From: an uncultured Lentisphaeraceae bacterium
GTDB lineage: Bacteria; Verrucomicrobiota; Kiritimatiellia; RFP12; UBA1067
DNA length: 41,172 bases
Reading direction: 5' to 3'
Assembly (NCBI GenBank): GCA_964400635.1
Contig: CAYNVE010000002.1
Coordinates: forward strand, 1 to 41,172
Part shown: piece by piece, positions 13,981 to 41,172 of the stretch
Numbering within the stretch: position 1 is the first letter of the stretch
Layout of the letters: the number at the start of each line of letters is the position of its first letter
Position numbers and translations under genes: made by a program
The notes under the pieces: generated by a model
The model's database searches: none
The model's input: the letters and a program-made list of their open reading frames with translations, nothing else
What the model was told of the DNA's origin: nothing

Positions 13981-15429
13981 GTGGACGAGGCAAAATGGTA
14001 CTTGAGAACGCAAGACGAGACCTTTGGTCCCGAAACGGAGGCGCGTCTCGTTGAGTGGGCGCGCCTCGGCCGCGTCCAGCCTGGTCAGGAGATTTCCGAT
14101 GACCAAATCGTCTGGCGCAAGGTCGAAGAAGTGCCATTCCTCGATATGCGCTTTTCGATCGACATCGGCGACGGCAACCCGCGCGGGCCCTTCAATCGCG
14201 CCGCCGCTGAGGCTCTGCTTGCCAGCGGCCGCTTGCCGCCGATGGCGACGCTCGTTGAAGTGCGCGCGCCGTTCGAGGACGAGAAGAAAGATGCCGAGCC
14301 CGCCACGCCGTCCGCGCCCGCGCCGTCGAGCGATCAGGCATCCTCCGTCGCCGAGACACCTGCCGTTCAGGTTGTTGAGAAGGTTGTCGAAGTTCCCGTT
14401 GAGAAGGTCGTGGAAGTCCCCGTTGAGAAGATTGTTGAGAAAATCGTCGAGAAGCCCGTTGAGAAGATTGTCGAGAAGGTGGTCGAGAAAGTCGTCGTTG
14501 ACGAGACGCGCGTCAAGGAGTTGGAAGGCCTCCTCGCCGAGGAGCGTCGCCACACGGCCGATCTCCAGTCGCGCCTCGACGACCTCCTTCGCGCAAAGGC
14601 CGATGCCGAAGCGGCGCTTCGTGAGAAAACTGAATCGTGCGAGGCGAAGGATCGCGCGCTCGTCGAGAAGGATCTCGATCTTGCGGATAAGAATCGGCAA
14701 ATCGCCGAACGCGAGCAAACCTTCACGACGAAGGAGCAGGCTCTTGTCGCGCAAGTCGCCGCGCTCGAGGACGAATTGAAGAGGCTCCCCGCCGCCGCGA
14801 GCGAAGTCGCCGATATCCAGGCCGCCGTTTTCAAGATCATGCAGGACGAGTCTGCGGAACTTGGCGCGACGATTGAGCGCGAGAAGGCCGAGTTTGAGGA
14901 AGTCCGCAAGCGTCATCAGGTGCGCGAGGAGGCCCTCACGGAGCGTCGCCGCGAGATCTTGAAGATGAGTGGGCGCAATGTTGAGGAGATGACGCGCAAG
15001 GCGCTCGTCGAGCGTCCCGAAGATCCGCGCACGGCGTGCCTTCGCCGCGACCTTGAGGATTTGCGTCGCGTCCACGAGAAGGCTCTCTACGAAAGCGAGG
15101 CGAAAATCCGCCAACTCTCCGAGCAGATTCGCGAGAGCCGCTCCGAGGCCCTGCGCGCGGCGGAGGGCGCGGGCGATGTCGCCTCGCTTCGCGTCGAGGC
15201 GGAGCAACTGCGTGAGCGTCTCCAACGCGCCGAGAAAGATCTTGTCACGGAACGTCAGCGTTGCGAGGAACTGCGTCAGCGCGAGGCGATGAGCAAGCAC
15301 GCGCTCATGACGCGCCTCGCCGCGCTTGAGTCGCCATCCATCGGTAGCACGGCGACCGTCGAGACGAACCAGAGCCGCGAGGCGAAACTCGTGAAGCTGC
15401 CGAACTGGATGAGGCTCAAGCATTCATGA
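13981..15429 (+). CDS. GYF-domain (GYF_2/DUF4339-like) protein with (V/I)VEK tandem repeats and long coiled coil
   Basis: KWYLRTQDETFGPETEARLVEWARLGRVQPGQEISDDQIVWRKVEEVPFL fits the WY..GP..G.i....vW...vp.L pattern. A second degenerate copy follows. Next comes the VVEKVVEVPVEKVVEVPVEKIVEKIVEKPVEKIVEKVVEKVVV repeat. About 300 aa of E/R/K/L-rich heptad-like sequence completes the protein. GTG start. Confidence 0.75.
   Translation: MDEAKWYLRTQDETFGPETEARLVEWARLGRVQPGQEISDDQIVWRKVEEVPFLDMRFSIDIGDGNPRGPFNRAAAEALLASGRLPPMATLVEVRAPFEDEKKDAEPATPSAPAPSSDQASSVAETPAVQVVEKVVEVPVEKVVEVPVEKIVEKIVEKPVEKIVEKVVEKVVVDETRVKELEGLLAEERRHTADLQSRLDDLLRAKADAEAALREKTESCEAKDRALVEKDLDLADKNRQIAEREQTFTTKEQALVAQVAALEDELKRLPAAASEVADIQAAVFKIMQDESAELGATIEREKAEFEEVRKRHQVREEALTERRREILKMSGRNVEEMTRKALVERPEDPRTACLRRDLEDLRRVHEKALYESEAKIRQLSEQIRESRSEALRAAEGAGDVASLRVEAEQLRERLQRAEKDLVTERQRCEELRQREAMSKHALMTRLAALESPSIGSTATVETNQSREAKLVKLPNWMRLKHS
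14371..14499 (+). repeat. in-frame imperfect tandem repeat (12/24-nt period) encoding (V/I/P)VEK units
   Basis: gttgagaaggttgtcgaagttccc / gttgagaaggtcgtggaagtcccc / gttgagaagattgttgagaaaatcgtcgagaagccc / gttgagaagattgtcgagaaggtggtcgagaaagtc. Confidence 0.85.
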
Positions 15430-16988
15430 CAGGCCCTCTTCTCGCGCTCTTGGCCGTTCTCTCGGTGTGGGACTATCCCGCGCGGTTTCCGCAACATCAG
15501 ACCCTGCGCGCGCAGTTCATCTCGTCGTTGCGCACGAATGACCGCGTGACGATGGAGTCTTCGTGCCGCAAGGGGGTCGAACTTCTCCCCGATGACCCGA
15601 CCTGGCACTACAACCTCGCCTGCGCGCTCGCCCATATCCCCGCGCGTCACAGCGAGGCGCTCAACGAGTTGGAGAAGGCGATCGACCTCGGCTTTCGCTC
15701 GGCCGACACCATCGCGGCGGACGGCGACTTGAAGCGGCTCGCGAAGAACCGCCGCTATCTAGAACTCATCGAGTACGCGAAAGCGATGGCCACGCGCCCC
15801 ATTCTTACGGGCCCGCTCGCGACGGTCGATGCGACGGGGACGTTCGGCGCGACGGTTGCGCTCGGCGAGCAGAACCTCGTGTGGGACTTTGATGTGGGCG
15901 CGTTCTTCGCGCGCCTCAATCTTTCTGAGACGACGCGCGCGCCGTGGACGGGCGACCTCTATATGAACCGCGACGGCGACCATTCGCCGAACGGGCCTGA
16001 GGCGAAAAAGCGCTTTCTCGCCGACTTTCCCGGCATCACCGAGGTGCGCTTTGATGCCGAGGGGCGGCGGCGCGGCCTCGACCTCAACGCGCCGAATGTC
16101 TGCTTTCCCTACCCGACGTTTGGAAACGCCTCGCGCGCGTTCGTCGGGAGTCCTTACTGGCGCTCGATCTCGCGCGCGCTCGTGACGGTCGAGGCGTCGA
16201 AGTTGCCGCTCATGGAAAAACTCTACCTCTCGAATCAAGTCTGGGTTTTTCCGTCGAACGCCGACACCGCGCCCGTCGGGACAAACGGCGATGTCTTCGC
16301 CTCTATCACGCCTTACTGGATCACGACGGCGGGGCGCAGTTGGTCGGACCTCCCTTACTTGAAAGCCGCGCTCCTCGCCTCGGCCGCATTGCCGCGCGAC
16401 GTCAAGGCAGAGGCGGTGCGGCGCGGCCTTTTGACACCGACGATCTTGACGCTCGTGCGAAAGAACCTTGCGGGCGTCCGTAGTGATGACGACTATCTTT
16501 CGGCGCGGGCGCATCCGACGGCCTTTCCACCGAACGCCATCAACACGAACCGCCTCGTCGAGGCCGCGCGTGAGATGACGGTTGAGGAGATTGCGCCCGT
16601 TGTTCCGATTGCCGTTGAGAGCGAGCCGACGAAGGGGCAGAGCGCATGGCCCGAGCTTACCTATCGGACGCACTTCGCGTGGGCGTATGTGCTGCGCACC
16701 GATGACGAAACGCGCTCGTTCAAGATCGCGGCGACGGGCGCGGAGGACTTCTGCTTTGTCTGCACACATGGCGCGGAGACGGGCGTCACGATCGAGCGAC
16801 TCCAGAAGGATGTCGTGCGCGTCACGCTTAAAAGTCGCGCCCTCTCGCCGACTCGGCGTGTTGACATCGCCGTCTTTGGGCGAAACGCGAAGACTTCGTG
16901 GGGCGCGCCGAGCTACGTCTCGTTCTCGCGCATGGATCCGACCGCGCCCTATTCCGACCCTGTGCTGACGCGCGCCGAAAAGAAATGA
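15426..16988 (+). CDS. hypothetical exported protein (520 aa) with one N-terminal TPR-like unit; no recognisable catalytic motifs
   Basis: N-terminal hydrophobic segment MTGPLLALLAVLSVW. TPR-like PDDPTWHYNLACALAHIPARHSEALNELEKAIDLGF...DGDLKRLAKNRRYLELI. I recognise nothing in the remainder. ATGA overlaps on both sides. Confidence 0.65.
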   Translation: MTGPLLALLAVLSVWDYPARFPQHQTLRAQFISSLRTNDRVTMESSCRKGVELLPDDPTWHYNLACALAHIPARHSEALNELEKAIDLGFRSADTIAADGDLKRLAKNRRYLELIEYAKAMATRPILTGPLATVDATGTFGATVALGEQNLVWDFDVGAFFARLNLSETTRAPWTGDLYMNRDGDHSPNGPEAKKRFLADFPGITEVRFDAEGRRRGLDLNAPNVCFPYPTFGNASRAFVGSPYWRSISRALVTVEASKLPLMEKLYLSNQVWVFPSNADTAPVGTNGDVFASITPYWITTAGRSWSDLPYLKAALLASAALPRDVKAEAVRRGLLTPTILTLVRKNLAGVRSDDDYLSARAHPTAFPPNAINTNRLVEAAREMTVEEIAPVVPIAVESEPTKGQSAWPELTYRTHFAWAYVLRTDDETRSFKIAATGAEDFCFVCTHGAETGVTIERLQKDVVRVTLKSRALSPTRRVDIAVFGRNAKTSWGAPSYVSFSRMDPTAPYSDPVLTRAEKK

Positions 16989-17962
16989 AGCTTGTCCTCG
17001 CTCCGCTCGCTGGCTTCACAGATGCGCCGTTTCGCCGAATGGCCGCCGAGGGTGGCGCGGATCTCACCTACACCGAGATGGTCTCGGCCGCAGGGCTTGC
17101 GCACGGCTCGTCGCCGACGCGCCACTTGATGGAGGTCTTACCCAGCGAAGGGCCCGTTGCCTGTCAACTCTTCGGCGCGAAGGAGACCGATCTCGCCTTC
17201 GCCGCGCGCGAGGTGCCGTCGAATCGTTTTGTGGAACTGAATCTCAACGCGGGTTGCCCGATGACGAAGGTGACGCGCGAGGGCGCGGGGGCGAAACTCG
17301 TTGAAGATCCGAGAAAAGTCTATCGCCTCTTAAAGGCGATGGGCGAGAATTCGCCACTTCCCGTCACGCTCAAGACGCGCCTCGGCCCGCGCCCCGACCG
17401 AACGAATGTCCTCGAACTTCTCGACGCGGCCGAGCAGGCGGGCGCGACGGGCTTCATCCTTCACGCGCGCTACACGTCGCAGATGCACGGCGGCGCGGTT
17501 CACCTAGATCTTCTTGCTGATGTCGTCCGCGCCGCGCACATTCCCGTCACGGGGAATGGGTCCGTCGTTGATCGCGCGACATTCGAGGCGATGGCGGCGA
17601 CGGGCGTTGAGGCCATCATGATTGGGCGCTCTGCACTCGCGAACCCCGCCATTTTTGCGCAGTTGAAAGCGGGCGCGGTCGTCTCGCCGAAGCGGACGCT
17701 TGACGAGGCGAAGGCGCTTCTCGCGCGGCACCTTGATCTCATAAGCGACTTTCGCGCGCTTCTGGCTGAACGCTATCCGAACGATCACATCTCGAGCGAC
17801 GATGCCTTCGCCGCGCTTCACATGCACACGCACCTCTTTCGCTACTTTAACGGTCTTCCCGGCGCGGCGGCCTTGCGCGCGAAGTTGACCACCATCCGCA
17901 CGAAGGCGCAGATCTTTGAGGCTCTTCGCTCGTGTCCCTGCGGAGAAACGGGAGAAAGATGA
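16985..17962 (+). CDS. dus: tRNA-dihydrouridine synthase
   Basis: MKLVLAPLAGFTDAPFRRM, ELNLNAGCPMTKV (catalytic Cys) and a TIM-barrel-like pattern. ATG 16985 overlaps the upstream stop (ATGA). The ORF-track start at 16898 is an extension. Confidence 0.88.
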   Translation: MKLVLAPLAGFTDAPFRRMAAEGGADLTYTEMVSAAGLAHGSSPTRHLMEVLPSEGPVACQLFGAKETDLAFAAREVPSNRFVELNLNAGCPMTKVTREGAGAKLVEDPRKVYRLLKAMGENSPLPVTLKTRLGPRPDRTNVLELLDAAEQAGATGFILHARYTSQMHGGAVHLDLLADVVRAAHIPVTGNGSVVDRATFEAMAATGVEAIMIGRSALANPAIFAQLKAGAVVSPKRTLDEAKALLARHLDLISDFRALLAERYPNDHISSDDAFAALHMHTHLFRYFNGLPGAAALRAKLTTIRTKAQIFEALRSCPCGETGER

Positions 17963-18741
17963 AGAAAGTCTGCCTAAGCTTTGACTTTGAGGAATGTGAC
18001 TTGCCGCGCGAGGGTGGCGTGGACTTTCCGCTCGCGCGCGGGATGGCCGTTTCGCGTGAGGGCGCATTTGCCGTCCTCGATGTGCTCGCGGCATCGGGCG
18101 TGAAGGCGACGTTCTTCTGCACCCTCACCTTCGCGGAGAACGCGCCCGAGGTGATGAAGCGTCTTGTGGCGGAAGGCCACGAAATCGCCGCGCATGGTGT
18201 CGACCATTTTCGCCCGCAGGAGGGCGATGCCGAACGTTGCCGCGACGGCCTTCGCGCGCTCTACGGCGTTGAGGCCGTCGGTTACCGCCAGCCGCGTATG
18301 TTCCCTGTCGACAACGCTCGGCTCGCGCGCGCGGGCTTCGCCTATAATTCATCGCTCAACCCGGCGTTCGTGCCAGGCCGCTACATGCACCTCACGATGC
18401 CGCGCACCCTTTTCAAGAAGGACGGGCTTTATCAAGTTCCCGCATCCGTCACGCCGCTCGTGCGTTTTCCCCTCTTCTGGCTCGCGCTCCACGTGTTGCC
18501 AGAATGGCTCTACCAGATGCTCGCGAAGCGGACGCTCCGCCATGACGGCTCTTTCGTCACCTATTTTCATCCGTGGGAGTTCTCGCCGTCGTTCGCGGCC
18601 GAGGCAAAGGCGCTCAAAGTCTCGCCGCTCATTCGTCGCAATCTCGGCGCGCCGATGCAAACACGGCTCAAGAACCTCATCGAATCTCTGCGCGGCGAGG
18701 ATGTCCTGTTCGAGCCGATTCGAAGTCTCGTCCAGGCCTAA
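17959..18741 (+). CDS. polysaccharide deacetylase (NodB/CE4-like) family protein
   Basis: CLSFDFEE...VKATFFCT...GHEIAAHGVDH resembles CE4 motifs (D-D/E, H-x-x-x-H). ATGA overlap with dus. Confidence 0.7.
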   Translation: MKKVCLSFDFEECDLPREGGVDFPLARGMAVSREGAFAVLDVLAASGVKATFFCTLTFAENAPEVMKRLVAEGHEIAAHGVDHFRPQEGDAERCRDGLRALYGVEAVGYRQPRMFPVDNARLARAGFAYNSSLNPAFVPGRYMHLTMPRTLFKKDGLYQVPASVTPLVRFPLFWLALHVLPEWLYQMLAKRTLRHDGSFVTYFHPWEFSPSFAAEAKALKVSPLIRRNLGAPMQTRLKNLIESLRGEDVLFEPIRSLVQA

Positions 18742-34730: not shown

Positions 34731-35865
34731 GCTTTTCGCCGTCGGCGCGCACAACGCGCGCGCGAACGAGCGACTTGCGCGGCGTCGCGCGCGCGTCCTG
34801 AAGCGAGCAGGGGAGATACGCGCCCGTCCAGCCGCTCCTTTTTTCCGCGTCCTCGATGACGAGCATCACGTCGCGATTGACGAAGCGCGAGGCGAAGACG
34901 GCGCGCTTTTCGGCGGCGAGGACGGCGAGCGCGTGTGCGCGGCGATGGCGGAGGTCGTGTGGGACGGCGTGCGGGAAGGCCACCGCCTTCGTCCCAGGTC
35001 GCTCGGAGTAGGGAAAGATATGGGCGTTCGAAAACGGCAGGCGCAGGAGGAGACTCTTCGTCTCGAGGAAGTCATTCTCACTCTCGCCTGGAAAGCCCGT
35101 CATCAGGTCGCACCCAAGCCCCATGAGCGGGTTTGTCTCGATGGCCTTCTCGACGAGAGATTCTACTTCACGGACGGGGTAGGGGCGGTTCATCGCGCGC
35201 AGGATGACATTTGAGCCAGACTGGACGGGGATGTGAAGAAAGGGCGCGATGGTCTGTGGGTGCGCCTTGAAAACGTCAAGGACGCGGAGGGCTGTCGCGC
35301 CTGGTTCTAGCGAGCCGAGGCGGATGCGGCAGTCGTCCGCGAGTGAGGCGAGTGCGTCAAGGAGGTCGTCGAGGCGCTTCCCCTCGGAGGCGTAGAGCGC
35401 AAGATTGCAGCCCGTGAGAACGATCTCGTGGTAGCCCGCGTCGATGAAGCGGCGCGCGCGGTCGAGAACGTCGCTGAAGGGCGTCGAGACGGAGGAGCCG
35501 CGAAAGGTCGGCACGATGCAAAATGTGCAACGACCGCTACAGCCGTCTTGGCACTTGAGGTAGGCGCGGGCGGTGCGCGTGGGGAGGGTATCGTGGGCGT
35601 GGTCTTCTCGCGTCGTCTTGACGGCATCCTTGAGGCAACCGACGATACGAAAACGCGCCTTCGGGTTCGTCGCGCGCAACTGGGCGATGCGCTTTTCCGA
35701 GTCACGCTCGGCGCGCCGCGTCACGCTACAGCCGCGCACAACGATGAGGTCGGCTTGGCGCGCGTCGTCTGTCCATTCCCAGCCGCGCGCGAGATAGTCC
35801 GCCTCGTCGTCGAGTGCCTCGGCGCGGTTGAGGCGGCAGCCGAATGTCTCAAAGAAGACCTTCAT
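34696..35865 (-). CDS. mtaB: radical-SAM methylthiotransferase (MiaB/RimO/MtaB family; MtaB-like)
   Basis: MTTase N-domain MKVFFETFGCRLN...VVRGCSVT. Radical-SAM cluster CSGRCTFC. TRAM-like C-terminus. ATG 35865 overlaps the upstream stop (ATGA). The 3' end overlaps holA convergently by 35 nt. Confidence 0.85.
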   Translation of the reverse strand: MKVFFETFGCRLNRAEALDDEADYLARGWEWTDDARQADLIVVRGCSVTRRAERDSEKRIAQLRATNPKARFRIVGCLKDAVKTTREDHAHDTLPTRTARAYLKCQDGCSGRCTFCIVPTFRGSSVSTPFSDVLDRARRFIDAGYHEIVLTGCNLALYASEGKRLDDLLDALASLADDCRIRLGSLEPGATALRVLDVFKAHPQTIAPFLHIPVQSGSNVILRAMNRPYPVREVESLVEKAIETNPLMGLGCDLMTGFPGESENDFLETKSLLLRLPFSNAHIFPYSERPGTKAVAFPHAVPHDLRHRRAHALAVLAAEKRAVFASRFVNRDVMLVIEDAEKRSGWTGAYLPCSLQDARATPRKSLVRARVVRADGEKLIATTVGEGRA

Positions 35866-36404
35866 TCGACAGGGATGACGAAGAGAAGGACGAGATTCGT
35901 CAAATTGAAAAGCGCGTGCAGGAGCATCGGGCATCCGATGCGGTCTGTTTTTTCGTAGAGTCGGCACTGCGCGAGGCCGAAGAAGAAGAGCGCGAGAAAC
36001 GCCGCATCGGGCCAGGGCTGCGTCAGATAGTGCGCGGCGGAAAAGAGCGTGGCGGAGACGAGCGCGGCGAGGACGGTCGCGACTGTGACGAGTCGGCAGG
36101 TCGCTCGGTGCGCGGCGATTTTTTTCGTCGCCCAGATGGGGAGTTTAAAGAGGAGACCGCGAAAGAGGAGTTCTTCGAGCGCGGGCGCGAGGATGATGAT
36201 TTGTGCGACGAGAAATGCGGCACCGAGGAAGTGGCGAGGCGAGGCGAAAGCGTTCTCGAGGACGTGCGCGACGATGTGGACGTTCTGTTGGTCGGGGAGG
36301 TCGAACCCGAGCCACGCCGCGACAGTCTTCGTGAGGTAGCAGAGAGCAATTGTCGCGGCTGTGACGACGGGCCAAGCCTTGAGCGTCAAGAGAAGTGATT
36401 TCAT
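35862..36404 (-). CDS. CPBP-family (CAAX-type) intramembrane glutamic protease
   Basis: Motifs LEELLFRG, FSAAHY and HALFNL. The start is taken at ATG 36404 (MKSLLLTLK), which sits directly downstream of a promoter. The ORF-track start at 36497 would read through the promoter. Confidence 0.8.
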   Translation of the reverse strand: MKSLLLTLKAWPVVTAATIALCYLTKTVAAWLGFDLPDQQNVHIVAHVLENAFASPRHFLGAAFLVAQIIILAPALEELLFRGLLFKLPIWATKKIAAHRATCRLVTVATVLAALVSATLFSAAHYLTQPWPDAAFLALFFFGLAQCRLYEKTDRIGCPMLLHALFNLTNLVLLFVIPVE

Positions 36405-36411
36405 GCCGTTT

Positions 36412-36420
36412 ATTATATCA
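36412..36420 (-). promoter_or_regulatory. extended -10 element (TG)TGATATAAT on the minus strand; hexamer ends 8 nt before ATG 36404 (leaderless)
   Basis: The minus strand reads ctGTGATATAATaaacggcATG. Confidence 0.5.
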
Positions 36421-36445
36421 CAGTCGCGCACCCCTCTTTTCGGGT

Positions 36446-36472
36446 CCTTTATGGTCTTTATGTTCTTTATGG
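36446..36472. repeat. three tandem 9-bp repeats (C/T)CTTTATG(G/T) in the divergent intergenic region
   Basis: cctttatgg tctttatgt tctttatgg. Confidence 0.85.
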
Positions 36473-36484
36473 TTAAAAGACGAT

Positions 36485-36503
36485 AGATGCCTGTCAAGAT
36501 GCC
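36485..36503. promoter_or_regulatory. direct repeat AGATGCC-N5-AGATGCC abutting the -35 of the Tad-like operon promoter (candidate operator)
   Basis: atAGATGCCtgtcaAGATGCCTTTACA. The centre-to-centre distance is 12 bp. Confidence 0.4.
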
Positions 36504-36533
36504 TTTACACGAACCCCTTAAAATTGATACAAT
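36504..36533 (+). promoter_or_regulatory. promoter of the Tad-like cluster: -35 TTTACA, 18-nt spacer, extended -10 TGATACAAT
   Basis: TTTACAcgaaccccttaaaatTGATACAAT. This leaves an untranslated leader of about 55-60 nt before the peptidase start. Confidence 0.45.
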
Positions 36534-36594
36534 ATGCGTTAAAGGCGAAAGGAAGATGCTGAATTCGACAGTCAGAATTTGACAACTTGATCAT

Positions 36595-37143
36595 GTGCAA
36601 ATGACCTCCTGGCATATTTCCTTCATCGCGCTTCCTTTCCTCTTCGCGTTTGCGATCTACGGCGAGGTGCTGAAGCGGCGCATTCCAAATGTTTTGACGC
36701 TCGCCGCCATGGCGTTTGGCCTCGGTGCCGCGCTGATTGAGAATGGGCTTCCGGGCCTCAAGGAGTCTGCGCTCGGCCTTTTGATCGGCGGCGGTGTCTT
36801 TCTGCCGTTTTGTCTCTTCGGGCTCGTGGGTGGCGGCGACATGAAATTGATGGCCGCGACGGGCGCGATCATCGGCTATCCGCTCGTCTTGCGCGCACTC
36901 ACCGATACGTGCATCGCAGGCGGGCTTCTCGCCGTCGGCATCGCCGCGTGGAACGGGACGCTCTTAAGCGCATTCGCGTCGGCCTTTCGTATCATCTTCG
37001 GCGCGAAGAGAAAACGCGACGAGAAGAAGACTGAGGCCTCGGCGGAGGATGCGGGCGACGCGCGGCATCCCCTGCCCGTCATGATTCCCTACGGCCTCGC
37101 CATCGCGGCGGGAACGCTCTACACCATCTTCACGGGGGCGTAA
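36595..37143 (+). CDS. A24-family prepilin peptidase (CpaA/TadV type)
   Basis: YGEVLKRRIPN (first active-site region) and LVGGGDMKLMAATGAIIGYP (GxGD second active site). About 180 aa and polytopic. The start is GTG 36595 or ATG 36601, and no obvious SD is present. Confidence 0.85.
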   Translation: MQMTSWHISFIALPFLFAFAIYGEVLKRRIPNVLTLAAMAFGLGAALIENGLPGLKESALGLLIGGGVFLPFCLFGLVGGGDMKLMAATGAIIGYPLVLRALTDTCIAGGLLAVGIAAWNGTLLSAFASAFRIIFGAKRKRDEKKTEASAEDAGDARHPLPVMIPYGLAIAAGTLYTIFTGA

Positions 37144-37147
37144 GACG

Positions 37148-39754
37148 ATGTTCTTCTTTCGGCGCGAGAGCAGGCTCAAGAAGACGGCCGCACGGCGCAT
37201 GGCTTCGCCGCGCGCTTCCGCCTACCTTGAGTTCGCGCTCGTTCTGCCGATTGTCGTCATGGTCATTTCCGCAATGATCGAGTTCACGTCGTTTTGGGAC
37301 GCGAAAATTATGGCGAACCACGCGGCGTGGACGGTGGGGCGCATTGCGACGGTGCGTGCGGGTGCGCGCGAGGCGAAGAAGTCGTCGACATCTCTCATCG
37401 GCAAGAAGCCCGCGAACGTGAAGGAGCTCTTAAACCCCGACACGCAGATTGACGGCATGTATGTTTCGACGGCGCTTCTCATGTCCACGTGCTCAATGGG
37501 CTCGATGCACGGCAGTTCGGCGGATCTCGCGAAGGACTGGGTCGAGAAGTGGATCGGCCAGGGCATGGCCGCCTTAAGAAACCTCATTGAGAACCAGATT
37601 AAGACGAAACTGACGGAGCTCGCGAAAAGTCTCGCGAACCTCTTTCCGCTCGACCTTGGCGATAACACAATCGGGAAGTTCGTGACGGAGATCATGAACA
37701 AGATCATCGAGAATGTGACGAAGCCGATTGCGGAAAAGCTCGCGTCGTTTATCGAAAGTCTCATCCCCGCGGGGGCCTACACGGGCTTCGAGGATCTCCT
37801 CAACAACAGCCGCGTCCTGCGTCAGGTCGTCTACGCGGCGGATCGCGTCGCGACATACGACGTCATCACGGTGAAAGAGCGCGATGACAAGTCGATCCCC
37901 GCCTTCTCGCGTGCGTCGCTCTACGGCGGCTCGCCGCTCGATTTGCCTGCGACATATGACACGAAATCAACCTACGACGACTGGATGGTGAAGACCTACT
38001 CGGGCTGGCCGCCGAACAACCAGTCTCAGAAGATGATTGATGTCACAATCAAGTGGCCGTTTGAGCGCGCGTGGATGTTCCCCGTGCTCGCGTCAGCCGC
38101 CTCGTCGTCCGACCCAGGCGATGTGCCCGTTGCGGTCGGCCGCGCCCTCTTCTACCCGCAACCGAATATCAAGAATGCGAACCTCTACAGCGACGGCGCG
38201 GAGGCGTTTGATCCTGGCACAACGAACTCGTATGTGAAGGCGATCGAAGAGCTGAAGAAGTCTTATAACGGTTTCTTGAATATCGTCCTCCTTTCCTACA
38301 AGTACCGCCTTCTCGAAGAGACGGTTGGGCCTTATGACAGCGACACGGGCAGCTACTCTTACAAGGGCATCGGGCGCGGCATTTCGGGCGAGGCTGAGGA
38401 GTCCGCCTACTACGCGCTCGACGGGCTTGTCCTCTGGATGGAGCGCGCGCCGGATGACACGAGCCAGAAGTCGAACTGGCAGAGCAAGTCGCCGCCCGCC
38501 GACTACAAGAAGTGCTTCATGGAATTAACGGGCACGTCTGACGAGACCTGCAAGTTTTGGAACGGCGTCGTGTTTCATCCGTGGACAATTAAGACGGCCG
38601 CGCTCGAGAATCTCGAGAACCGTGCCTACAAGGATAAGGAGTGGTTCTTCTGGGGCGACGACACGCATCGCCACCTGCGCGTCAAGCATGCGACGCCGAG
38701 CGATCTCTTCGCGGCGTGGAAGGGCAGCTTCGGTGGTCAGCCGCCGTGGTATGCGTTTCTGAATGGTGGCACGATCGACGGCGCGTCGAGCGAAATCAAC
38801 GGCTCGTTCACGGCGGGGAATCTCGTGATGAACGTCTCGGAGGACGACTTTAAGAGCGCCGTCTCGCGTTATGTCGGCGGTTCGGCGGCATCCTGTCAAG
38901 ATTGGCGCACCTTCGTCGCCTCGGCAAATGTTTTCGCGCCGAATGCGAACGCGATGGTCGCGTTCTCCTCGTCGTCGGCATCGACCTTGAAGACGCGCGA
39001 AACGGCCGCGCTCAAGAATGTGTTTTCGGACGCGGCGACGACGCAGGAGAAGATTCGCCAACTCGAGCGCGCGAGCCGCGACGAGTTAGCCTCCGCAATT
39101 GGCGGGGGCAGCGAGGAGGCGGACTACAGCAGCATGGGCTTCTTCGACTACGGCGATGATGACGCGGACATCGCCAAGGATCCTGAGAAGGCTGTCGAGA
39201 AAATGAAGGAGAAACTCGAGACGCTCAAGAAGACGATTATCAATGACGTCATTGCCATCGACGAGGCGGAGCAGGCCGCACGCGATGCCTATTCGAAGCT
39301 TCAGGAACAGATCAAGACGACGACGAATGAACGCCGCGAGAAGATCCTCGAATGGGCCGCGAAGACGGCCGCCGCGTTGCAGCGCGCGGGTGTGGCGGAC
39401 GCGACCGCCGTCGCGCAGATCTTGCGCACGGCGTTCCCCGTGAAGGATGACTTTGAGACGGGGGTTGCCGCCTTCGAGTCGGCGGCCACGGCCTACGCCT
39501 CTGCGCTTGAGACGCTCTACAAGGCGGAGCAGCAACTCGCGAAGGATCTCGGGCTCAAGTCATCGGGTAGCAAGGACAAGGAGAAGGGCGATGCTGATCC
39601 GAGCGGCGAGGGCGTGCCCGAGGACGACCCCTATCGTCCGTCGGAAAGCGGCTCAGACAGCGGCTCGGATGACGACGGGTGCGGGGATTTCTGGAAGCGG
39701 AAGGCGGGCGGCCACGGTTGGACGCAAGATCCGAGCGGGAAGGAGGATGTCTAA
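37148..39754 (+). CDS. 868-aa protein with TadE-type (Flp-pseudopilin) N-terminus and a large uncharacterised body with an acidic tail
   Basis: The N-terminus RRMASPRASAYLEFALVLPIVVMVISAMIEFTSFW matches the TadE class signature (xEFALVLPxxxxxxxxxxEF). The rest shows no motif I recognise. A coiled-coil-like segment covers roughly aa 690-810. The tail is SESGSDSGSDDDGCGDFW. Confidence 0.8.
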   Translation: MFFFRRESRLKKTAARRMASPRASAYLEFALVLPIVVMVISAMIEFTSFWDAKIMANHAAWTVGRIATVRAGAREAKKSSTSLIGKKPANVKELLNPDTQIDGMYVSTALLMSTCSMGSMHGSSADLAKDWVEKWIGQGMAALRNLIENQIKTKLTELAKSLANLFPLDLGDNTIGKFVTEIMNKIIENVTKPIAEKLASFIESLIPAGAYTGFEDLLNNSRVLRQVVYAADRVATYDVITVKERDDKSIPAFSRASLYGGSPLDLPATYDTKSTYDDWMVKTYSGWPPNNQSQKMIDVTIKWPFERAWMFPVLASAASSSDPGDVPVAVGRALFYPQPNIKNANLYSDGAEAFDPGTTNSYVKAIEELKKSYNGFLNIVLLSYKYRLLEETVGPYDSDTGSYSYKGIGRGISGEAEESAYYALDGLVLWMERAPDDTSQKSNWQSKSPPADYKKCFMELTGTSDETCKFWNGVVFHPWTIKTAALENLENRAYKDKEWFFWGDDTHRHLRVKHATPSDLFAAWKGSFGGQPPWYAFLNGGTIDGASSEINGSFTAGNLVMNVSEDDFKSAVSRYVGGSAASCQDWRTFVASANVFAPNANAMVAFSSSSASTLKTRETAALKNVFSDAATTQEKIRQLERASRDELASAIGGGSEEADYSSMGFFDYGDDDADIAKDPEKAVEKMKEKLETLKKTIINDVIAIDEAEQAARDAYSKLQEQIKTTTNERREKILEWAAKTAAALQRAGVADATAVAQILRTAFPVKDDFETGVAAFESAATAYASALETLYKAEQQLAKDLGLKSSGSKDKEKGDADPSGEGVPEDDPYRPSESGSDSGSDDDGCGDFWKRKAGGHGWTQDPSGKEDV

Positions 39755-40878
39755 TGACAAGTCGGCTCTTCGGCTTCCTTCGTTCGTCGCGTGCGCGCCT
39801 CGCGGACGATCGCGGCCACGTGGGTGTCTTGATGGCGCTCGTCATTTTCGTCGTCATCGGCTCGCTCACGATGACATGGAACACGGCGCAACTTTCGAAG
39901 GAGAAGATGCGCCTTCAGAACGCGGCTGACTCGGCGGCGCTCGGCTTCTGCGTCTGGCAGGCGCGCGGCATGAACACGGTGCAGAACCTGAACGACGAGA
40001 TGTACGCCGCGCTCTCGATCGCGAAGAAGTTGCTCGTCGTCGCCGTGCCCGCCGAGACGGCCGCGCAGGTTCTCGAAAAGATGGGCTCTATACCTTACAT
40101 CGGCATCGTCTGCAAAATTGCCGCGCAGGCGTTCCACATCATCGCGGCGATCTCGGGCGGCGTCTCGGGGCTTCTCGCAAACCGAATCTGCCCTTACTTC
40201 TTAAGACCGCTCGGCTATTTCTACGCCTACGGCGCGACGGTCTTCGCCTATTGGGGCGCGCAACAACTTGCGGCGAAAAATCGAGCCGATCCGCTCGGCA
40301 ACGTGAGCATCAACTTAGGACCTTTCGGCAACCTCGGCGTTTACGCGCTCGGCATCGCCTTCCCCATCATCGACACGGTGAAGCTGCCCCTCGCGACGGA
40401 GTCCAAGAGCGAGGAGCCGTGGAAGAACGACACGGATTATTCGTCGCTCTTTCAGGAAAAAAGCGGCGGCATCTACAAGACGATTCACAAGATTTGCGGC
40501 ACGGGCGGCAAATGGGAGGTGAAGCCCTGGGTTTCGAAGCGTGACAACAAGACGGGCAAGAATGCGCTGCCGGGCCCAAGCATTTGGATCGCGCACAAGT
40601 ATTATACGCACATTGAGACGATGCCGCTGGAGGCGTGGTCGTCGAAGACATCGAAGACGATTGACCAGTGGCCGATGATGGCGATTGCCGCAGCGCAGTG
40701 CGTGACGGGTGATGTCGTCGCGCACTCCGTCACGCCGAAGAATGCGAAGAACAACCAGCGCCCCGCCGGCTTCGGCACGGGCGCGACCGCGAAGCTCATC
40801 CCCGTCACGACGGCCTTTGAGTCGCTGACGACGAACAGCGTGGCCAATGGAATTTTGAAGAGGATCATTTACCACTAA
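39754..40878 (+). CDS. TadG-type (Tad/Flp pilus-assembly N-terminal domain) protein, 374 aa, no vWA motifs seen
   Basis: DDRGHVGVLMALVIFVVIGSLTMTWNTAQLSKEKMRLQNAADSAALGFCVW fits the TadG/Tad N-terminal pattern (G.v.vl.al....l.......d.......r..LQ.AaDaAALA). TAATG overlap with the upstream gene. Confidence 0.75.
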   Translation: MTSRLFGFLRSSRARLADDRGHVGVLMALVIFVVIGSLTMTWNTAQLSKEKMRLQNAADSAALGFCVWQARGMNTVQNLNDEMYAALSIAKKLLVVAVPAETAAQVLEKMGSIPYIGIVCKIAAQAFHIIAAISGGVSGLLANRICPYFLRPLGYFYAYGATVFAYWGAQQLAAKNRADPLGNVSINLGPFGNLGVYALGIAFPIIDTVKLPLATESKSEEPWKNDTDYSSLFQEKSGGIYKTIHKICGTGGKWEVKPWVSKRDNKTGKNALPGPSIWIAHKYYTHIETMPLEAWSSKTSKTIDQWPMMAIAAAQCVTGDVVAHSVTPKNAKNNQRPAGFGTGATAKLIPVTTAFESLTTNSVANGILKRIIYH

Positions 40879-41172
40879 TGAACACACGCGAAGCGAGATT
40901 GAAAACTCGTCTCATGCGTCGGCTTCAGTCAACGCGGGGGACGGCGTATCTTGAATTCGCCTTCGTGATGCCGCTCGTCGTCATGACGATGTGCTTCGCC
41001 GTTGACTTTACGCGCCACCTCTATGTCGAGCAACAGGTCGAGATTGCGTCGCGCGCGCTCTGCGACGTCGAAAGCCATCTCATTCCTGGCAAGCGGAAGG
41101 GATGCCCTGGGCGGCCTGCGAAGATCGTCGTTCGGAACTACCTCGCCGAGTCGCTGAAGAACGAGGGGCTTC
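40878..41172 (+). CDS. TadE-type pseudopilin-like protein, 5' partial (runs off the window)
   Basis: My own translation from ATG 40878 gives MNTREARLKTRLMRRLQSTRGTAYLEFAFVMPLVVMTMCFAVDFTRHLYVEQQVEIASRAL... This contains a canonical G/xxxxEF prepilin site plus a hydrophobic helix. The frame stays open to the end of the window. The ORF is absent from the supplied track. TAATG overlap with the upstream gene. Confidence 0.75.
   Translation, partial: MNTREARLKTRLMRRLQSTRGTAYLEFAFVMPLVVMTMCFAVDFTRHLYVEQQVEIASRALCDVESHLIPGKRKGCPGRPAKIVVRNYLAESLKNEGL

Follow-up and report, generated by a model that had tools for sequence, protein, structure and literature searches.

Large TadE-class genes behind a variant prepilin peptidase at the probable head of a Tad pilus operon in gut and rumen Kiritimatiellae

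Does a gene cluster that opens with a prepilin peptidase and runs directly into pseudopilin genes, with no pilin gene before it, belong to a Tad (type IVc, Flp) pilus or to a separate system derived from one? The question is raised by positions 36504–41172 of a 41,172-nucleotide (nt) stretch of DNA from an uncultured Lentisphaeraceae bacterium (contig CAYNVE010000002.1, positions 1–41,172 of the forward strand; hereafter the window, meaning the whole stretch). A sequence-only reading of the window had recognized four tightly coupled plus-strand open reading frames (ORFs) at its end, encoding an A24 prepilin peptidase and three proteins of the pseudopilin class, and had proposed them as the head of a Tad-derived system. 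ORF calls and Pfam matches agreed with the four genes and their positions (Table 1); none of the four ORFs scored above cut-off with an NCBIfam model. The junctions, read directly, were as described. The peptidase gene and the gene for the 868-amino-acid (868-aa) protein meet at TAA-GACG-ATG, with a 4-nt gap, and the 868-aa/374-aa and 374-aa/261-aa pairs share one TAATG overlap each. For the peptidase we used the ATG start taken by gene callers on identical contigs, which gives a protein of 180 aa. The longest frame of the 374-aa ORF begins at GTG 39679, and homologues and gene calls favour the ATG at 39754.

The exact 374-aa protein is present on nine ENA metagenome contigs, all from one study. 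One of these contigs (L001; loci and contigs are cited by such numbers) was 99% identical to the window over 2,973 compared bases and extended 7.4 kb beyond it. The second TadE-class gene, which is cut by the end of the window, is entire in L001 (11125–11910, 261 aa). It is followed by a gene for a membrane-anchored 293-aa protein of no family, and then by genes for RcpC/CpaB (TIGR03177 pilus_cpaB, 139 bits against a cut-off of 71, plus PF16976), a 471-aa secretin (PF00263, 88.8 bits) and a 540-aa ATPase (15043–16665; T2SSE, PF00437, 202 bits). Two T2SSF genes, tadB and tadC, come next (16665–17369 and 17375–18259; PF00482, 38.3 and 59.6 bits, cut-off 25.2), and the contig closes on the beginning of a gene for a further family-less membrane protein. 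The best NCBIfam model for the ATPase was TIGR03819 (TadA family), at 329.7 bits, under its equivalog cut-off of 373 bits. At its N-terminus the protein has an additional domain of about 110 aa, and its first 126 aa matched PF16697, an FHA-type fold, only weakly (E = 0.031, 15 bits against a cut-off of 33.2). The secretin had no Secretin_N or pilus-N match in Pfam and was matched by no RcpA-specific model, and there was no recognizable match to the accessory proteins RcpB and TadD.

Among the marks of a Tad system, an A24 peptidase without a methylase, a CpaF/TadA-type ATPase, two T2SSF proteins, and RcpC with a secretin were found. The predicted assembly ATPase, platform and secretin genes do follow downstream, and on a contig 99% identical to the window; in this respect the earlier proposal holds. 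Because rcpC, the secretin gene, the ATPase gene, tadB and tadC lie downstream, we conclude that the window ends in what is, judged by gene content, the head of a full Tad machine.

Table 1. Features at the end of the window, in window coordinates, with the basis of each assignment
Feature	Position	Strand	Basis
CPBP/Rce1-type glutamic intramembrane protease gene	35862-36497	-	divergent neighbour of peptidase
sigma-70-like promoter (TTTACA, 18 nt, TG-TACAAT)	36504..36533	+	consensus match only
flp1-like promoter -10, leader, ribosome-binding site, ATG	36524..36582	+	local alignment to relatives; proposed scar
tadV/cpaA-type prepilin peptidase	ATG 36601 (or GTG 36595)..37143	+	180/182-aa ORF; PF01478
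TadE-class giant minor pilin (putative)	37148..39754	+	868-aa ORF; PF07811 at N-terminus
Tad/TadG-class minor pilin (putative)	39754..40878	+	374-aa ORF; PF13400 at N-terminus
second TadE-class minor pilin (putative), 5' part	40878..>41172	+	98 of 261 codons inside window; cleavage motif RG↓TAYLEF

The same cluster recurs in related genomes. At 90% clustering the 868-aa protein had 81 relatives (790–995 aa), of which all but one, listed as 'hypothetical protein [Kiritimatiellae bacterium]', were unnamed. When 1.84 billion representatives were searched exhaustively with a profile of this family, 163 matches came up, about 45 of them full-length and the others fragments or matches to the N-terminus only. 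The 374-aa protein, with 164 relatives, showed the same distribution and was better conserved (44–87% identity). Scanning one genome per GTDB species recovered 27 loci, all in gut or rumen metagenome-assembled genomes (MAGs) labelled Kiritimatiellae or Kiritimatiellia, or carrying looser or wrong names. A tblastn map of all loci, comprising these 27 and further metagenome contigs (about 30 species-level loci), revealed a fixed order of 15 genes: flp1-flp2-flp3s-tadV-big TadE-TadG-TadE2-x(293/306)-rcpC-secretin-ATPase-tadB-tadC-x(about 357)-x(about 580), where x is a family-less gene with the length of its product in aa. The last two of these genes (about 357 and 570–660 aa) close the cluster in related contigs, and the family-less genes of the loci had no Pfam or NCBIfam match. 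The succession of peptidase, pseudopilins, rcpC, secretin, ATPase and tadBC is non-canonical, as the sequence-only reading had it, and our literature search found no description of this gene order or of Tad/Flp systems in Kiritimatiellae. On this distribution, the gene cluster appears to be specific to gut and rumen Kiritimatiellae.

Some individual loci showed irregularities. Two lie inside MAGs labelled Alistipes onderdonkii (L016, CAVGMG010000018.1) and Eggerthellaceae (L026, JAFRJC010000001.1), likely as a result of bin contamination or mislabelling. In UBA1727 (L011/L020, 16995–18612; DCIL01000013.1) the ATPase appears as two ORFs (412 and 135 aa) in the NCBI copy and as one 533-aa gene in the JGI copy, which points to a frameshift or a sequencing difference. 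For the window organism, only the assemblies L001 and L002 extend as far as the gene after tadC, and both end less than about 300 nt into it (18263–18565 and 16244–16489, respectively). Something at this place, either variation or a repeat, interrupts assembly.

Beyond the first 50–60 residues, no motif in the three pseudopilin-class proteins had been placed from the sequence, and the Pfam and NCBIfam searches confirmed this. TadE (PF07811) matched the 868-aa protein on residues 24–60 only (28.4 bits, cut-off 22.9) and the 261-aa protein on residues 21–60 (30.5–32.5 bits), while Tad (PF13400) matched the 374-aa protein on residues 26–63 only (29.1 bits, cut-off 22.3). Assignment to a family over the full length was rejected for all three, as the Pfam matches are confined to the N-terminal 40–60 residues and no NCBIfam model exceeded its cut-off. 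A leader and a hydrophobic alpha1 helix with Glu5 are present in the 868-aa and 261-aa proteins; the 374-aa protein has a hydrophobic N-terminus without Glu5. The leader cleavage motif of the 868-aa protein is RA↓SAYLEF(A) (the arrow marks cleavage), and that of its L014 counterpart is RG↓SAYLEFA. The two TadE-class proteins share the leader and the N-terminal part of alpha1 only (hhalign 95%, 43 columns, 51% identity). Kinship between the 868-aa and TadG-class proteins was considered and dropped, as profile–profile comparison showed no relation.

The AlphaFold2 (AF2) model of the 868-aa protein, built from 62 homologues (predicted local distance difference test, pLDDT, 75.5; predicted template modelling score, pTM, 0.58), has a 53-residue alpha1 helix (residues 21–73), a lower-confidence helical insert (about 124–236) and a beta sheet (240–335) bearing the invariant residues W287-P288, W303-P304, W309 and P312. 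A confident alpha/beta domain (about 370–650) and long helical hairpins (611–801) follow, and the model ends in an acidic disordered tail (805–845) and a short conserved C-terminal hairpin in which W858 is invariant. Conservation in the family peaks at residues 1–120 and 281–360 and is lowest at 400–800. Ten MAG assemblies of the species of L014 (including L052–L060) are available, and most of their contigs break within the big TadE gene, with products cut at 356–844 aa; this suggests strain-level variability of the gene. Profile searches of the PDB with the 868-aa protein gave coiled-coil noise only, and a Foldseek search of the PDB with its model gave generic helical bundles at best (E = 0.06). 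The 374-aa model (pLDDT 81.9, pTM 0.72) has a helix (22–110) that folds back on a second helix (117–175), followed by a beta domain, and its best Foldseek match in the PDB had an E of 0.88. The three proteins are not ordinary full-length TadE/F/G orthologues: their matches are N-terminal only, and the two that were modelled have no PDB relative. The 868-aa protein is a member of a narrow, unnamed family without a recognizable fold.

The peptidase matched Peptidase_A24 (PF01478) at 51 bits (cut-off 26.5; E = 2e-13) and has no methyltransferase domain. The aspartate of the GxGD motif is retained as D80. At the place of the expected first catalytic aspartate stands a glutamate, E22 (codon 36664–36666, counted from ATG 36601). 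The two catalytic aspartates of GxGD prepilin peptidases have been described as invariant (PMC3584216). The glutamate was found in 20 of the 20 Kiritimatiellae TadV orthologues examined (L010–L041), Flp-bearing loci included. When a profile of these orthologues was aligned with Escherichia coli GspO as the reference peptidase, 'acyGEirerriPN' paired with 'SVIDFRTQLLPD' and 'GGGDlKLmAA' with 'GYGDFKLLAA'. A tblastn search of plasmids with the peptidase gave no match.

Nearly all orthologous loci have three small Flp-type genes ahead of the peptidase. These are flp1 (about 54 aa; Flp_Fap, PF04964; cleavage motif RRG↓ATYLEYA), flp2 (about 75 aa; Flp_Fap; KG↓ATFIEYA) and flp3s (56–68 aa; R[GA]↓SVYLEY), whose product has a near-invariant C-terminus, FRE(V/I)LIKLPIF, and no Pfam match. 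The flp3s gene always lies between flp2 and tadV (L010 8429–8632; L012 8984–9154; L044 1856–2062). One motif is common to Flp1, Flp2, Flp3s, big TadE and TadE2, the last in the form RG↓TAYLEFA. The locus thus starts with Flp genes in about 30 related species, and every core Tad component looked for is present except TadZ. Neither the opening with the peptidase as a feature of the system nor the idea of a separate 'Tad-derived system' survives this comparison.

The sequence-only reading was right, however, that no Flp ORF lies upstream in the window itself: a motif scan ([GAS]x4E[YFW] with a hydrophobic stretch) found no such ORF on either strand of its 41 kb, and tblastn of the whole window was also negative. 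The locus of one relative, L014, likewise has no Flp-type ORF, and these two are the only trio-less loci. The trio is kept in L044, L047, L049 and L061–70, at about 80% identity over concatenated TadV, big TadE and TadG. The trio-bearing sister species, represented by NCBI MAGs and by further samples of that one study, has a TadG 84% identical to that of the window and the order APH-flp1-flp2-flp3s-tadV. Identities over the three proteins among the window, L014 and the sister species (80, 80 and 77%) come close to a trichotomy. Since such close relatives keep the trio, its absence from the window locus appears to be a recent, local loss or relocation. The upstream neighbour differs between the two trio-less loci, being a CPBP protease gene in the window and lpoB in L014, so that the uncoupling probably occurred twice, once in the window species and once in the L014 lineage. 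In the sister species a gene for a DeoR-family regulator, rather than the secretin, ATPase and tadBC genes, follows rcpC (L044 9034–10940; L047 8015–8501); its machine genes seem to be divided at another place.

A search of the protein collection with a Flp profile gave 586 matches. The nearest Flp1 variants were traced to sister species in which the locus has its usual order, to a trio standing alone in a different MAG (L050) and to a single 1.9-kb contig (L048, k141_493359). The trio of L050 is preceded by a TGGTATAAT promoter of its own; behind it lie a second promoter and a gene of unrelated kind. The MAG that holds this trio, GCA_963657105.1, was considered as a member of the species of L014 and rejected, because the 10 assemblies with the identical TadG do not include it. 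Contig L048 reads dinB(-)-flp1-flp2-flp3s, is cut within flp3s and comes from sample ERZ27279222, which also contains the window organism. Among the samples retrieved, the window type and the trio-bearing sister species never occurred together. Because these sample sets do not overlap, L048 is a candidate for the relocated pilin genes of the window organism, which most probably lie elsewhere in its genome.

The gap of 100 nt between the divergent CPBP protease and peptidase genes may hold a trace of such a loss. It contains a putative promoter with 10 of 12 consensus matches and an extended -10 element, in a region with two such sites as compared with 0.6 expected from shuffles. An ATG at 36556 opens an 8-codon remnant ORF only (MLNSTVRI, stop 36582). 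Positions 36524–36558 aligned with the sequence upstream of flp1 in L048 with a score of 17.5, against 7.7 ± 1.3 for shuffled sequences, none of 300 of which reached it. The same stretch gave z = 3.9 with L044 and z = 4.0 with L012. Comparisons with most other loci were non-significant, so that homology to the flp1 leader is suggestive and unproven. The extended -10 element TGGTATAAT(A) recurs before flp1 in several species and, in L050, before the gene that follows the trio as well (sites: L050 1090–1200 and 2040–2075, L048 1330–1345, window 36524–36540). This is suggestive of an old flp1 promoter that would now drive tadV, the stretch being a possible scar of the lost flp1-flp2-flp3s.

The ratio of non-synonymous to synonymous substitution rates (dN/dS) was 0.08–0.19 for the four window genes compared with L014, and 0.04–0.16 for seven downstream genes in L001 compared with L014. 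Between the window and L001, the big TadE gene has 28 synonymous and four non-synonymous differences. No ORF is interrupted in any of the nine assemblies. As far as can be judged from the sequence, the locus is under purifying selection and alive.

We consider it probable, with good though not complete confidence, that the region forms the promoter-proximal part of a single operon for a complete Tad pilus machine, carrying its tip complex and having had its pilin genes relocated. The Flp trio would have been removed from its ancestral place, leaving the old flp1 promoter to read into the peptidase gene. Judged from their motifs, short basic leaders would be removed by the TadV-type peptidase at [G/A]↓xxx[LI]E[FY], its substrates being the 868-aa and 261-aa TadE-class proteins and Flp1–3. 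The TadG-class protein, which has no Glu5, may stay uncleaved; TadG of Aggregatibacter is reportedly uncleaved. We suggest that the 868-, 374- and 261-aa proteins bundle their alpha1 helices on the TadB/TadC platform as a priming complex, which would then stay on as the pilus tip, a suggestion modelled on the KilL/M/N tips and on what minor pilins do in type IV pilus and type II secretion systems (T2SS). The three pseudopilin-class proteins would in this way constitute a TadV-processed tip/priming complex. The CpaF/TadA-type ATPase, whose gene is observed, would polymerize Flp below the tip, and the fibre would exit via the RcpC ring and the secretin. In the 868-aa protein the N-terminal third may be a conserved pilin/assembly module, and the distal two-thirds, which are variable, elongated and largely helical, may be an exposed, lineage-specific binding module, with a slender shape that would suit passage through the secretin.

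Several points weigh against this reading. With glutamate for the first catalytic aspartate, the activity of the peptidase is an assumption, and the role of the three proteins as a tip complex is drawn from analogy. Confidence in the 868-aa model is only moderate over its N-terminal third (pLDDT about 55–80). No TadZ/CpaE, ParA or AAA_31-type match was found in any locus examined, a result that covers the loci and not whole genomes. The Flp proteins of relatives had no tblastn match in the window or the 7.4 kb downstream (48.6 kb in total), the candidate pilin genes on L048 could not be linked to the window genome, and the promoter/leader homology spans just 35–45 nt.

A different reading is that the pilin genes were lost and not moved. 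The apparatus would then build a short pseudopilus of the three large proteins, acting as a T2SS-like piston or displaying the 868-aa protein. The 48.6 kb around the locus without a Flp ORF, the scar-like flp1 promoter and ATG remnant directly before tadV, the purifying selection on all machine genes and the existence of a second trio-less species (L014) are consistent with this. However, a stand-alone trio exists in the clade (L050), and the trio on L048 comes from a sample with the window organism but, as far as seen, without the sister species. The closest sequenced relatives, moreover, keep the trio. It also counts against a Flp-less machine that Tad systems of other bacteria can have unlinked pilin genes. 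We regard it as improbable, and we are equally doubtful of its fuller version, in which the window species and, independently, that of L014 would have lost Flp and would possess a Tad-derived pseudopilus of three proteins, processed by a GxGD peptidase in a naturally occurring Glu/Asp form.

With the canonical systems (flp-tadV-rcpCAB-tadZABCDEFG in Aggregatibacter, pilA-cpaA-F in Caulobacter) the locus shares the TadV-type A24 peptidase without a methylase, Flp pilins with G↓xxxxEY (in the orthologous loci), RcpC/CpaB, the secretin, one CpaF/TadA ATPase, TadB/TadC, and TadE- and TadG-class pseudopilins. The pseudopilin genes are distal in canonical Tad loci, whereas the Kiritimatiellae locus places them straight after the peptidase. 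The latter also lacks TadZ/CpaE and recognizable RcpB or TadD, and has four extra conserved family-less genes and a third Flp-like gene, flp3s. Its TadE-class protein has 820–995 aa, as compared with about 150–200 aa in canonical systems, a size taken from the sequence-only reading, and its peptidase differs in having glutamate in place of the first catalytic aspartate. For the window species, detachment of the Flp genes from the locus is a further difference.

In architecture, the closest described relative is the Kil apparatus of Myxococcus and Bdellovibrio, and sequence kinship with it is claimed only for the families shared. The only ATPase of Kil bears an FHA domain at its N-terminus; TadZ is missing, and the secretin is short (PMC8460266). 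KilL, KilM and KilN are TadE/F/G homologues that are predicted to form a heterotrimeric spearhead tip, the largest member ending in a long-helix domain without a PDB homologue, and the same tip role has been proposed for TadEFG in general (PMC12075869). Shared with the Kil of Myxococcus xanthus are the single ATPase with an N-terminal extension, the absence of TadZ, the short secretin and the many family-less genes, as well as three TadE/F/G-class minor pilins, one of them large and with a distal long-helix domain of no PDB homologue. The large member is the TadG-class KilN in Kil, whereas in Kiritimatiellae it is of the TadE class and much longer. In the Kiritimatiellae loci seen, moreover, paralogous tip clusters are absent, as is a T3SS*-type (type III secretion system) partner, and the FHA match stays below threshold.

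These likenesses raise the possibility of a Kil-like contact weapon, or of another non-adhesive role, in which the tip would be specialized for engaging other cells. In its favour are the single ATPase without TadZ, as in Kil (PMC8460266), the weakly FHA-like extension of the ATPase (PF16697, E = 0.031), the short secretin (471 aa) without a Secretin_N or pilus-N Pfam match, and the large tip pilin with a domain of no known fold. Against these stand the FHA match under the Pfam cut-off and the absence of T3SS*-like or toxin genes from all the loci, and we think such a role unlikely. Kiritimatiellae are, moreover, saccharolytic anaerobes of gut and sediment and are not known to be predators. 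Finally, that the locus is a decaying remnant, non-functional after pilin loss and on its way to a pseudogene, is scarcely credible: the Flp genes are gone from their ancestral position and the peptidase has glutamate for a catalytic aspartate, but nine independent assemblies show every ORF uninterrupted, dN/dS is 0.04–0.19, the glutamate is common to all orthologues, Flp-bearing loci included, and translational coupling is kept.

A tip position for the 868-aa protein in a Tad pilus would have parallels in other type IV filaments. CofB of enterotoxigenic E. coli (ETEC) is a large, tip-located minor pilin. PilB/PilC of Streptococcus sanguinis and TcpB of Vibrio cholerae (as cited in PMC12075869) are further examples. 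Such proteins share a pilin N-terminal module with extra C-terminal domains that give the tip its properties, and they are needed to start assembly. They belong to T4a/T4b (type IVa and IVb pilus) systems, with PilD-type peptidases and class-specific leaders, and their extra domains are lectin, von Willebrand factor A (vWA) or beta-rich, whereas those of the 868-aa protein are largely helical, elongated and without detectable relatives.

Large, modular tip pilins of the TadE/F/G class are already an established concept, and Tad pili are major colonization factors whose tips have recently been recognized as a site of functional specialization (PMC12075869). What is new here is the lineage (Kiritimatiellae, within the Planctomycetes–Verrucomicrobia–Chlamydiae, or PVC, group), the fixed non-canonical order, the four conserved family-less genes and flp3s, together with the 820–995-aa TadE-class family and the glutamate at the first catalytic position of the peptidase. 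The locus is a conserved Tad variant in an uncultured yet common gut and rumen lineage, for which the literature searched holds no description. As candidate adhesins, its putative tip proteins of 820–995 aa could bind to other cells, to plant particles or to glycans of the host. The constant glutamate in place of the first 'invariant' aspartate, and the natural variants in which pilin genes are uncoupled from the machine, are oddities open to test. Knowledge of Tad systems is not overturned; their known diversity is widened into the PVC group, and names are given to 'hypothetical' proteins.

The G+C content of the region that holds the cluster (0.575–0.63) is the same as that of the rest of the window, so that its composition bears no mark of foreign DNA, and the idea of a foreign island was dropped. 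No tRNAs or meaningful tandem repeats were present in the window, and an Rfam scan of its whole length revealed no riboswitch or other RNA upstream. On the opposite strand, a MiaB-like radical-SAM (S-adenosylmethionine) gene also lies upstream of the peptidase. For the divergent CPBP protease the best NCBIfam models were MrtJ and myxosortase-type models, all under cut-off; its adjacency to the peptidase gene is not kept in relatives and was seen in this species only.

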